This document shows, one piece after another, positions 4,149-18,499 of a stretch of 18,499 nucleotides of DNA (position 1 is the first letter of the stretch; each line of letters starts with the position of its first letter). The translations under genes and the position numbers were made by a program. The notes below the pieces were generated by a model. That model was not told the origin of the DNA. It did no database searches and worked only from the letters and a program-made list of their open reading frames with translations. This DNA is from a virus (lineage: Duplodnaviria; Heunggongvirae; Uroviricota; Caudoviricetes), in IMG/VR virus record IMGVR_UViG_2778261447_000005, positions 1-18,499 of that record; one strand, given 5' to 3'.

Positions 4149-4449
4149 GCGCCTCTCCGTTCTGTCGGTTGAGTCTCCGGCGCTCCATCGCCTCAATGGC
4201 CCGTTTGTCTGCGTTGCAGGTTTCCAGTGCATCCAGGAGGCTGTCGCTCCATATCCCGATATTTCCCCAGGTGGGGTGTTCAGGGAAGGGCGGGGGCCGT
4301 GTTCCCGTCGTCAGTCCCGCCGGAATGAACCGGAAGGAGGGCGCGGGCAGTGGCGCGTTCCGTGTGTTCGCGCAGCCGGTCAGTAAAACGGTGGTCAGGA
4401 AGAGTGCCGGCGCACTCATCCGTCGCAGCAATTTCGCGAAGCTGTTCAC
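4135..4449 (-). CDS. lysC: Outer-membrane spanin (o-spanin, Rz1/LysC-like lipoprotein), overlapped architecture
   Basis: 104 aa; positive n-region then hydrophobic stretch then lipobox LLTGC, proline-rich mature part with a C-terminal Cys. Starts (GTG at 4449, AGGAAGGAG RBS) inside the i-spanin gene in another frame and extends past its stop. Confidence 0.6.
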   Translation of the reverse strand: MNSFAKLLRRMSAPALFLTTVLLTGCANTRNAPLPAPSFRFIPAGLTTGTRPPPFPEHPTWGNIGIWSDSLLDALETCNADKRAIEAMERRRLNRQNGEAHAEK

Positions 4450-4687
4450 GTCTGACTTCTCCTTCCTGTGCCCTTTTCTGTCGCTGCGTCATCACCTCAT
4501 GCAGTACGGCGGAGGCATCGCTGATAACGGCGGAGGACTCACGCAGCGCCCGGCTGTATTCGCCCAGCTGCTGCTCTGCGGCGTCACGTGCCTCACCGGC
4601 ACGCCCCAGCCGGTATGACTGCCACATGGCCGCCGCCGTCAGGGTGGTCACCATGAGGGCAACAATCACGGCGTAAACCGGTCTCAT
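4280..4687 (-). CDS. lysB: Inner-membrane spanin (i-spanin, Rz/LysB-like)
   Basis: Start at ATG 4687 (MRPVYAVIVALMVTTLTAAAMW...), GGGAGG RBS; single N-terminal TM then charged, coiled-coil-like periplasmic domain; ATGA overlap with endolysin stop. Confidence 0.65.
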   Translation of the reverse strand: MRPVYAVIVALMVTTLTAAAMWQSYRLGRAGEARDAAEQQLGEYSRALRESSAVISDASAVLHEVMTQRQKRAQEGEVRREQLREIAATDECAGTLPDHRFTDRLREHTERATARALLPVHSGGTDDGNTAPALP

Positions 4688-17179: not shown

Positions 17180-17593
17180 TTACTCCCCTGCTGTTGCCTT
17201 CTCAAATGCAGCCCGGTACAGCACAAGAAGGCGCTGGTATTCAGCGATAAAGTCTTCTGCTGTTTTAATCCCTTTCACGACCACGCTGTGGGTGGTCATT
17301 TCCAGAACGAGCACCATTTCTGACGATGACCAGCTGATAACGCTGCTGTCGCACCCGTTGATGTGGAACAGGCCCAGCACCATGCTGTGGTTCTGGTCTC
17401 TGACATCCACGCGGTAACGGTCATCAACGGTGAAGGAAAAATTCCCGTATGTGGTGGCGCTGCTGGCGGCCTGTTTACAGGCGCGGCGGTAATAGTCATG
17501 CAGGTCATTGAGACGGGAAGCGAGGCGTGGATCCACCGCCCACATCCAGTTAAAAAAATCCTGAATATCTGAAAGTCCCTTAACGCTCTTCAT
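17180..17593 (-). CDS. Hypothetical early-operon protein (137 aa) immediately upstream of A
   Basis: ATG 17593 with GGAGG RBS; stop 5 nt before the A start; P2 orf80-83/B position but the sequence is not recognised. Confidence 0.55.
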   Translation of the reverse strand: MKSVKGLSDIQDFFNWMWAVDPRLASRLNDLHDYYRRACKQAASSATTYGNFSFTVDDRYRVDVRDQNHSMVLGLFHINGCDSSVISWSSSEMVLVLEMTTHSVVVKGIKTAEDFIAEYQRLLVLYRAAFEKATAGE

Positions 17594-17661
17594 GAGAACC
17601 TCCGGAAACGGACGTGCGGAAGCCTCCCGCGTACGGGGGCGGGATGGCTCCGGGATGTTGA

Positions 17662-17889
17662 TTAGTGGTGGTAGTGCTGGTTAATGAGGTCCTGCAGCTT
17701 GCGCAGGTCATCCGCCAGGTAGCTGAATACAGCGGCGGAATACATGTTTGACAGTGCGTGGCTGCGCTCATGCAGCATATTGATGTGCATGATATGCGCG
17801 ACGCGGAATGCGCGGGAAAGTCTGCGGTTGATTTCAGTCTGGATGTGACGACGCGCAGCGTATGCGCGCTGTTGTTTGCGGTTTGCCAT
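17662..17889 (-). CDS. Hypothetical small basic early protein (75 aa)
   Basis: ATG 17889 with GAAGAGG RBS; first ORF downstream of the putative early control region; Arg/His-rich N-terminus. Confidence 0.45.
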   Translation of the reverse strand: MANRKQQRAYAARRHIQTEINRRLSRAFRVAHIMHINMLHERSHALSNMYSAAVFSYLADDLRKLQDLINQHYHH

Positions 17890-17937
17890 GGTGTTTGGCC
17901 TCTTCGTTTGTGAGTTTTTGGATACTCACCATCCAGA

Positions 17938-17977
17938 GGTTGCAATTCTGGGTGGCGAGACGTACAGGGTTGCAACC
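17938..17977. promoter_or_regulatory. Two GGTTGCAA boxes 30 bp apart (second is the perfect palindrome GGTTGCAACC) upstream of the early operon; candidate operator and -35 elements
   Basis: agaGGTTGCAAttctgg at 17938-17945 and cagGGTTGCAACCacc at 17968-17977, read directly. TTGCAA resembles a -35 hexamer on either strand. Located 50-90 bp upstream of the 75-aa ORF start. Confidence 0.4.
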
Positions 17978-18070
17978 ACCGGCAAACGAAGAAACCGGCC
18001 CGACCGAAGTCGGCCCCGTACGCCCCACCATAATTCTGGTGCGAAAAAGACGTGGCGATACGGTACGCAC

Positions 18071-18091
18071 AAAAAAACCGCTGGCGCGGTT
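18071..18091 (-). terminator. Putative rho-independent terminator on minus strand
   Basis: On the minus strand AACCGCgccaGCGGTT (6-bp stem, 4-nt loop) followed by a T-run of ~7; lies ~120 nt downstream of the truncated ORF ending at 18213. Confidence 0.45.
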
Positions 18092-18113
18092 GTGCGCTTC
18101 GTTTGTCAGCGGG

Positions 18114-18121
18114 GGTTGCAA
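18114..18121. promoter_or_regulatory. Third GGTTGCAA box embedded in a near-palindrome
   Basis: cgGGGGTTGCAAtcccgg read directly; same 8-mer as the two boxes at 17938-17977. Confidence 0.35.
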
Positions 18122-18212
18122 TCCCGGCACCCGTTTTATGAGGTGCAGCGGAAATGTAACCTGACTGATTGCGGCATGGCAAGCGGTTTTTTTGTGTGTG
18201 CATAGTGGTTAC

Positions 18213-18437
18213 TCAGTCCGGTAGCAGTTCGCAAAGCACGGTGTCAGCGGCGGTATATCGTGCGTAAAGCCGGGCGAGGACCCATCTTTTAAGGGATATC
18301 CCGGTCGTGTCCCGGATGTACTTTCTGATTTCGCTGAATGTCATCCCCTGTTCATCGCGCAGTTCAGTTACCAACTCCACCAGGTGATTGAAGTGGTTTA
18401 CTGAATTTGGCCACCTGAACAGAGGTGATATGCTCAC
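18213..18437 (-). pseudogene. Early-region ORF whose 5' end is provided by the IS terminus (likely 5'-truncated gene or IS-fusion artefact)
   Basis: The track ORF starts on a GTG at 18437, inside the IS end (IS begins ~18389). The native part encodes ...LVELVTELRDEQGMTFSEIRKYIRDTTGISLKRWVLARLYARYTAADTVLCELLPD. An internal ATG at 18344 could give a 43-aa product but has a poor RBS. Confidence 0.35.
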
Positions 18438-18499
18438 CTCAGAACAACACAGGTGCCATAATGAAAAAAAGAAATTTCAGCGCAGAGTTTAAACGCGAA
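18389..18499 (+). mobile_element. IS3-family insertion sequence (IS911-like), left end; element continues beyond window
   Basis: Terminus TGAAGTGGTTTACTGAATTTGGCCACCTGAACAGAGGTGATATG (IS3-family ends start with TG), followed 72 bp in by an ORF starting MKKRNFSAEFKRE, the characteristic N-terminus of IS911-type OrfA as I recall it. Confidence 0.75.
18461..18499 (+). CDS. IS3-family transposase OrfA, first 13 codons only
   Basis: ATG 18461; MKKRNFSAEFKRE...; runs off the window end. Confidence 0.75.
   Translation, partial: MKKRNFSAEFKRE

Follow-up and report, generated by a model that had tools for sequence, protein, structure and literature searches.

A predicted IsrK-C4 RNA immunity cassette precedes the epsilon-like and gpA genes of a P88-type, P2-like prophage

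In phages P1 and P7, two short cassettes of the immI region, a and b, reportedly pair with complementary sites, a' and b', that lie before icd-ant on the same transcript (Citron & Schuster 1990, Biere et al. 1992). According to the same two studies, b' is said to cover the ribosome-binding site of the first open reading frame (ORF), the controlled product is reportedly an anti-repressor, and heteroimmunity is said to arise from cassette changes. We know of no upstream IsrK- or seqA-like copy of the targets in P1 or P7. The C4 and CI RNAs of P1 and P4 are processed from tRNA-like substrates, and the c4 RNA of P1 and P7 belongs to the same family (RF01695) as the C4 RNA treated here. In the literature, C4 is equated with the CI RNA of satellite P4 (PMC4825925, PMC3632133), and IsrK, a small RNA of the Salmonella prophage Gifsy-1, is described as a structural homologue of P4 seqA RNA (PMC4825925). 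For P4, PMC4825925 reports that CI pairs with seqA and seqC, resulting in premature termination. Here we describe a control region (positions 17,890-18,212) in an 18,499-nucleotide stretch of viral DNA, IMG/VR record IMGVR_UViG_2778261447_000005, which as a whole is called the window below. This region is very probably a secondary immunity cassette that works through RNA, carried by a prophage of P88 type (Xuanwuvirus, P2-like) and homologous to PLE-seqA-cI-seqC of P4 and to isrK-STnc1160 of Gifsy-1.

A scan of the window with Rfam covariance models at gathering thresholds returned an IsrK-like leader RNA and a C4/CI-type antisense RNA, both upstream of a gene for a 75-aa homologue of P4 epsilon and on the same strand. 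The original prediction had described this region as non-coding and had singled out three copies of a short sequence, GGTTGCAA, which we refer to as boxes 1 to 3. The region indeed contains no protein genes, but it encodes two RNAs: the isrK match includes box 3 and the terminator, the C4 match includes box 2, and box 1 lies within the leader that precedes the 75-aa ORF, 3 nt downstream of the C4 match. The predicted features are the following.

18182-18153, minus strand: sigma-70-like predicted promoter, with the -35 element TTGCCA at 18182-18177, an 18-nt spacer and the -10 element TACATT at 18158-18153
18146-18071, minus strand: IsrK-like leader RNA, counterpart of P4 seqA (RF01394, 61.9 bits against a gathering threshold of 50, model positions 1-77)
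18121-18115, minus strand: target a'1, UUGCAAC (box 3), in the loop of IsrK hairpin 2 and complementary to C4 cassette a
18105-18097, minus strand: target b'1, CAAACGAAG, lying unpaired within IsrK; the complement of cassette b in the C4 loop
18091-18069, minus strand: intrinsic terminator of the IsrK-like RNA, AACCGCGCCAGCGGUU followed by U7, found by the terminator scan and corresponding to isrK model positions 56-77
18035-17948, minus strand: C4/CI-type antisense RNA (RF01695, 79.3 bits against a gathering threshold of 45, full-length, model positions 1-87)
17991-17983, minus strand: cassette b of C4, CUUCGUUUG, in a hairpin loop; 12 alleles among relatives
17976-17970, minus strand: cassette a of C4, GUUGCAA (box 2), palindromic in the window allele; 6 alleles among relatives
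17945-17939, minus strand: target a'2, UUGCAAC (box 1), in the mRNA leader just 3' of C4; counterpart of P4 seqC
17910-17902, minus strand: target b'2, CAAACGAAG, the whole feature spanning 17910-17899; it overlaps the Shine-Dalgarno sequence GAAGAGG (17905-17899) of the 75-aa gene

The P4 immunity region gave the same two Rfam matches in the same order and on the same strand, isrK at 8692-8615 and C4, which is the CI RNA, at 8507-8420. As in the window, the promoter, seqA, CI (seqB), seqC and the replication-control genes of P4 follow one another on one strand; two cassettes occupy three sites, the downstream b' abuts or overlaps the Shine-Dalgarno sequence of the first ORF, and an epsilon homologue and a replication initiator lie downstream. 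In P4 itself, GUGAGAA and UUCACAGG occur twice, once within the leader and once immediately ahead of the AGGAGG that serves the first ORF, and CI contains UUCUCAC and CCUGUGAA. The two elements nevertheless differ: the window derives from a complete P2-like phage, which has structural genes as well as a C/Cox switch, whereas P4 is a satellite. Moreover, the replication gene is of the P2 gpA type (PF05840) in the window and encodes the alpha primase in P4, and the spacer between isrK and C4 measures 35 nt as compared with 107 nt. The first controlled ORF of the window is the epsilon homologue, while in P4 an ORF at 8584-8168 (labelled cI) lies between the leader and epsilon. When we examined 80 P4-like loci (L088-L167, approximately 300 nt upstream of epsilon), we again found modular cassettes with matching targets on both sides, comprising three main a alleles (TTCTCAC, TTCCTAC and TTTCCAC) and at least seven b alleles. 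No cassette pair was common to the P88-type and the P4-like sets. The P4-like C4 cassette UUUCCAC does equal the target-strand allele of some P88-type phages, so that those two C4 RNAs would be mutually complementary; this sharing is probably due to chance, as only 3-4 positions are variable.

The isrK-orf45(STnc1160)-anrP module of Gifsy-1 resembles the window in that the IsrK small RNA is made from a promoter of its own and ends at a leaky terminator, transcripts that read through carry a C4-like element complementary to the middle of IsrK, and an anti-repressor-type gene lies downstream. It differs in belonging to a lambdoid phage, in the type of anti-repressor and in its published model, in which the C4-like region is a small ORF and IsrK a trans-activator. 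An Stx2a phage has the same layout, isrK plus C4, before an anti-repressor-like ORF, and its downstream b' site is placed relative to the Shine-Dalgarno sequence as it is in the window and in P4. The locus from this phage (L085) also contains, at 532-648, an ALIL pseudoknot, the frameshift element of the IS3 family (RF01497, 120.9 bits), which belongs to an IS copy, lies about 1.9 kb from isrK-C4 and is unrelated to it. A literature search on C4 RNA in P2-like phages found nothing, and such papers on P88 and Xuanwuvirus as were retrieved were genomic surveys.

The repeats that had drawn attention to the region were recovered as described, with GGTTGCAA on the plus strand at 17938-17945, 17968-17975 and 18114-18121, the middle copy lying inside the 10-bp palindrome GGTTGCAACC (17968-17977). 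The minus-strand hairpin AACCGCGCCAGCGGTT with its T-run (18091-18069) between boxes 2 and 3 was likewise found by the terminator scan, and it coincides with the end of the isrK model. By counting alone, the significance of the boxes is modest: four matches to the box 8-mer were reached in 4 of 200 shuffles of the window, and any 8-mer occurring three times within 200 bp was seen in 48 of 300. A second triplet had been overlooked, namely CAAACGAAG at 17910-17902 and 18105-18097 on the minus strand and at 17983-17991 on the plus strand, for which the expected count is 0.15 and three copies occurred in 0 of 200 shuffles. The arrangement of this triplet, two copies one way and one inverted, gave the first hint of RNA pairing. 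That the boxes, in contrast, look like direct repeats in the window is due to the a allele UUGCAA, which happens to be palindromic and thereby makes the inverted middle copy appear direct.

Structure prediction agreed with the family assignments. For C4 alone, both the minimum-energy and the centroid fold reproduced the Rfam consensus structure (-46.4 kcal/mol, z-score -5.14, with 0 of 200 shuffles as stable), in which a long closing stem encloses two hairpins; cassette b occupies the hairpin 2 loop, and cassette a falls in a 3' single-stranded bulge. The predicted fold of isrK (z-score -2.26) consists of a 5' hairpin, a small hairpin displaying UUGCAAC, the single-stranded CAAACGAAG and the terminator, whose stem has a probability of about 1.0 in an RNA starting at 18146. 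The duplex between isrK and C4 has a computed energy of -32.1 kcal/mol, and cassette b is complementary to b'2 at 10 of 10 positions. The Shine-Dalgarno sequence overlapped by b'2 ends 9 nt before the ATG of the 75-aa gene. In the promoter scan, TTGCCA-18-TACATT was the sole promoter-like site in the region, ending 7 nt ahead of the isrK match with a predicted start near 18146. We take this position to be the same as that of the P4 PLE promoter.

For a comparison of relatives, we gathered 80 IMG/VR loci by means of the 75-aa protein, and not by means of the boxes, added the phages P88 and Shae_phiSM, and aligned the 45 distinct leaders using MAFFT; one more distinct leader, L037, was excluded because of an insertion. 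Across the 45 leaders, the scaffold had a mean column identity of 89%, the promoter hexamers, hairpin stems and terminator were invariant, and two short cassettes were hypervariable. The six alleles of cassette a, written as outer/middle sites, were TTGCAAC/GTTGCAA, TTGAGAC/GTCTCAA, TTCTCAA/TTGAGAA, TTCGCAG/CTGCGAA, TTTCCAC/GTGGAAA and TTGGAAC/GTTCCAA. In all six, the site in the isrK loop is identical to that in the leader, and the C4 site is the reverse complement of both. The same holds for the 12 alleles of cassette b, where two sequences are complementary to the C4 loop, one in the single-stranded stretch of isrK and one overlapping the Shine-Dalgarno sequence. Between C4 and the downstream leader, 97.8% of the cells were paired, changes on both sides were seen at 10 of 16 pairs, and the covariation score was 0.671 (shuffled 0.127), while sliding the partners reduced pairing to 38-47%. 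Between isrK and C4, the corresponding values were 99.3% of the cells, 11 of 16 pairs and a score of 0.694 (shuffled 0.134), with 28-50% paired after sliding. For neither pairing did any of 500 shuffles reach the observed score. Considering the a targets separately, a'1 was paired in 99.4% and a'2 in 100% of the cells, each with changes on both sides at 4 of 7 pairs. Cognate duplexes averaged -27.0 and -30.6 kcal/mol, as compared with -14.4 and -17.2 kcal/mol when both cassettes differed. The two cassettes assort independently, the 6 a and 12 b alleles occurring in 20 combinations, and one identical 76-aa epsilon-like protein is encoded downstream of 7 cassette combinations covering 4 of the 6 a alleles. 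An exact search of IMG/VR for the b plus a allele pair of the window returned only two contigs that had already been collected, and no other phage type with the same address. Judged by this comparison of relatives, the boxes are real and functional.

Two relatives stood out from the set. In L076 (177-486), and in no other relative, the isrK cassettes (TTTCCA and CAAACGAAG) are unlike those of its own C4 (TTGAGAA and CTTTGCTCT) or the downstream targets, and the promoter spacer and the 5' half of the terminator are divergent as well; this leader looks like a recombinant with its junction between isrK and C4. A deviating spacer sequence of unchanged length was also present in L075. In L037 (upstream of 397), a 17-nt insertion in the C4 region has produced b hairpins in tandem, first CTTTGCTCT and then CTTGTGTAG. 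The downstream Shine-Dalgarno target fits the second, and this leader may represent an intermediate of cassette exchange.

The phages nearest to the window are P88-type Peduoviridae (Xuanwuvirus), with 84-87% identity over the region. An initial guess, based on the large replication protein, that the element was a P4-like satellite was ruled out by these nearest phages and by the P2 gpA domain. The cassette directly precedes a block of three genes.

17889-17662, minus strand: 75-aa homologue of epsilon, the helper-derepression (anti-repressor) protein of P4; the first controlled gene (match to PF25738 Derepression in Pfam at 28.2 bits, cut-off 27)
17593-17180, minus strand: 137-aa gene, second in the block, function unassigned (phrog_3237, unknown function)
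17174-14664, minus strand: P2 gpA-type replication initiator of 836 aa, third in the block (PF05840 Phage_GPA, E 2e-104; phrog_91)

The 75-aa protein is 29% identical to P4 epsilon (E 3e-8) and is named 'derepression protein' in RefSeq. No similarity was found between the 137-aa ORF and P4 orf151, and a Pfam search with the 137-aa, 74-aa, 143-aa and 133-aa ORFs found nothing. As intact comparators we used P88, Shae_phiSM and an Escherichia coli chromosome that is 100% identical to the window over 17580-18388. All three have the integrase and the C repressor/Cox switch at a distance of 3.5-3.9 kb upstream, separated from the cassette by several small early genes; in the identical E. coli relative, the distance to C and cox is 3.9 kb. 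The region is therefore a second control point within the early operon, immediately ahead of the three-gene block that runs from the epsilon-like gene to gpA, and not the head of the operon, where it had been placed before. The window alone cannot show this position, because the end of an IS3-like element from 18389 onwards truncates the upstream ORF. More precisely, 18389-18499 holds the terminal inverted repeat and the first codons (MKKRNFSAEFKRE) of this element, annotated elsewhere as ISEc52 family; the match to intact E. coli prophages ends exactly at 18388, and of the 184-aa protein of intact relatives, which the element has interrupted, a 74-aa ORF (18213-18437) is left. Rfam matches to isrK and C4 were also obtained in P88 and Shae_phiSM, and the public records of this phage group, RefSeq entries for E. 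coli among them, carry no RNA annotation at the locus. Instead, the P88 record (KP063541) has a coding sequence for a 'hypothetical protein' on the opposite strand (4346-4534), running across C4 (4342-4429) and isrK (4465-4539), which is likely a misannotation shared by these phages as a group.

Seen at this locus itself are the matches to two RNA families, the architecture, the complementarity and covariation of three sites in two cassettes, and the position of b'2 over part of the ribosome-binding site; for processing, trans action, Rho-dependent polarity and the direction of the IsrK effect, we infer the likely course from P4, P1 and Gifsy-1. Following these precedents, transcription would begin near 18146 at the predicted promoter (18182-18153, minus strand), which would be active in the lysogen. 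The majority of the transcripts would end at the terminator (18091-18069) and yield an IsrK-like RNA of about 76 nt that displays a'1 (UUGCAAC) and b'1 (CAAACGAAG). Read-through transcripts would carry C4 (18035-17948), which, like its P1 and P4 counterparts, is probably released through RNase P cleavage and trimming of the 3' end and would expose cassette b (CUUCGUUUG) in a hairpin loop and cassette a (GUUGCAA) in a bulge. These cassettes are predicted to pair with the leader copies a'2 (17945-17939) and b'2 (17910-17902), the latter over the ribosome-binding site, and such pairing would block translation of the epsilon-like gene. Polarity or Rho-dependent termination should then silence the 137-aa gene and gpA too, so that the anti-repressor and the replication functions would be off in the lysogen as well as in superinfecting phages with the same cassettes. 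Since the IsrK-like RNA bears the same targets, it could sequester C4, either in cis on the read-through transcript or in trans as a decoy, and might in this way tune or relieve the block. The logic resembles that of P1 immI, where an RNA restrains an anti-repressor beside the primary repressor.

Several points weigh against this interpretation. In the 266-nt leader, both the minimum-energy and the centroid fold pair the middle of isrK with the b-to-a stretch of C4 in cis, so that the switch could act largely within one molecule and not as trans-acting immunity. In the published work on Gifsy-1, short IsrK on balance activates, by way of a small ORF, and the role of the C4-like STnc1160 is left open (PMC4825925). 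The mismatch in L076 implies that a match between isrK and C4 is not absolutely needed for persistence, and the RNAs, their ends and their processing at this locus are predictions from the sequence. The whole-leader fold would fit a purely cis-acting RNA switch, similar to an attenuator or riboregulator, in which the isrK middle, the C4 cassettes b and a, and the leader sites a'2 and b'2 would be alternative partners in one read-through transcript and no diffusible C4 would exist. The published 'structure A' of Gifsy-1 is just such an intramolecular helix, and the covariation is equally compatible with pairing in cis or in trans. We nevertheless consider a switch of this kind distinctly unlikely, given that the isolated C4 element adopts a highly stable fold, similar to the tRNA-like precursors processed in P1 and P4, and given that the terminator would separate IsrK from C4 in most transcripts and leave a free IsrK RNA. 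In addition, P4 CI and P1 C4 are described in the literature as trans-acting (PMC4825925, PMC3632133). Control could also be exerted mainly by translation of a small upstream ORF starting at the 5'-end AUG of C4 (18031), as for Gifsy-1 orf45, whose translation matters according to the published work, in which case the cassettes would be coding sequence. This ORF (18031-17834, minus strand) is in another frame than the epsilon-like gene and opens at an AUG conserved in all 45 relatives; it is 65 aa long here and 148 aa in most relatives, spanning the whole gene in 34 of the 45. Its end, however, is not conserved, the stop codon falling 56 nt inside the epsilon-like gene in the window but 307 nt inside it in most relatives, its AUG lacks a preceding Shine-Dalgarno sequence and lies in the closing stem of the predicted C4 fold, and the cassette changes are compensatory at the RNA level while the encoded residues are freely altered. 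The coding status of the ORF is doubtful and control through it highly unlikely. A further ORF of 207 aa (18203-17580, minus strand) extends in another frame over the whole RNA cassette and the 75-aa gene, and is almost certainly spurious in view of the RNA evidence.

The original prediction was right in seeing an immunity-type regulatory control region here, and right about the terminator. It had further proposed that the boxes are DNA operators or overlapping -35 elements for an immunity repressor, a Cox-like protein or the products of the 75-aa or 137-aa ORFs. The window taken by itself invites this view, since its three copies are identical and in the same orientation, TTGCAA is similar to a -35 hexamer and the middle copy is palindromic. 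In the relatives, by contrast, the outer sites share one sequence, the middle site has its reverse complement, and compensatory changes make the three co-vary, which argues against an operator because a protein operator would be expected to keep one sequence. The four box alleles found with the identical 76-aa protein point the same way, although the protein compared is a neighbouring one and not C or Cox. The promoter scan, moreover, detected no promoter-like site at any box, and the second cassette, b, behaves alike and overlaps the ribosome-binding site. The Cox boxes of P2 and the direct-repeat operators of its C repressor are likewise short repeats in a control region, but they act as DNA, at the Pe/Pc switch. 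In this phage type, the C and Cox genes and their intergenic switch are situated 3.9 kb upstream, so the repeats of the window are not at the divergent Pe/Pc promoters; the boxes, which lie inside two RNA families, behave as RNA pairing partners. The layout is hence unlike that of the P2 C operators, as had been suspected, and a role of the boxes as protein-binding sites is scarcely credible. Finally, despite the frequency with which shuffled windows yield a triplicated 8-mer, chance repetition in a functionless intergenic spacer can be given next to no weight against two Rfam matches above gathering, the conserved scaffold, the compensatory covariation and the CAAACGAAG triplet.

Besides the RNA pairing sites, we noted an inverted repeat around the isrK gene.

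18179-18199 (left arm) and 18065-18085 (right arm), no strand assigned: 21-nt inverted repeat, 90% complementary, flanking the isrK gene

The left arm overlaps the -35 element and the upstream A-tract of the promoter, and the right arm corresponds to the 3' half of the terminator and its U-run. In the predicted fold of an RNA initiated upstream, the terminator hairpin is lost (probability 0.0 as compared with about 1.0 for an RNA starting at 18146), with a difference of 9.6 kcal/mol. The repeat could therefore act as an origin-dependent antiterminator that lets early-promoter transcripts ignore the isrK terminator, even though pairing of an upstream arm with the 3' half of a terminator is kinetically unfavourable. 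By inspection, the repeat is not obviously conserved in P4 and the Stx2a phage, and the alignment of the 45 leaders held no informative variation in it. Alternatively, it may be an UP element of the promoter or a boundary for module exchange.

Taken together, the evidence gives good support for an RNA immunity switch of the known IsrK/seqA plus C4/CI kind, one that had gone without annotation and that resides in a P2-like phage. As this system has already been described for P4, P1/P7 and Gifsy-1, the conceptual advance is small, and what is new is confined to the host element, the gated gene and the documented allele repertoire. Still, a protein-centred reading is replaced by a directly testable mechanism, and two RNA genes are identified that GenBank and RefSeq leave unannotated in this phage group. 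The P4-style RNA switch is thus found in full P2-like phages too, ahead of an epsilon-type anti-repressor and a replication initiator, which bears on the mutual control of helpers and satellites or of competing prophages. The natural allele series, with its 6 x 12 cassettes and near-perfect compensation across three sites, provides a ready design table for specificity swaps. A broader view, possible if unlikely, is that P88-type phages adopted an IsrK-C4 switch of the satellite kind, which would add a second layer of immunity, addressed by RNA, to the control of their own gpA and epsilon-like anti-repressor, with early-promoter transcripts perhaps escaping the IsrK terminator by way of the 21-nt inverted repeat, and with the two freely recombining cassettes (at least 6 x 12 alleles) forming a combinatorial address code. 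If this were true, the address code would govern silencing and de-silencing among P2-like phages, whether resident in the same cell or arriving from outside, and possibly also between them and P4-like satellites that share the scaffold.

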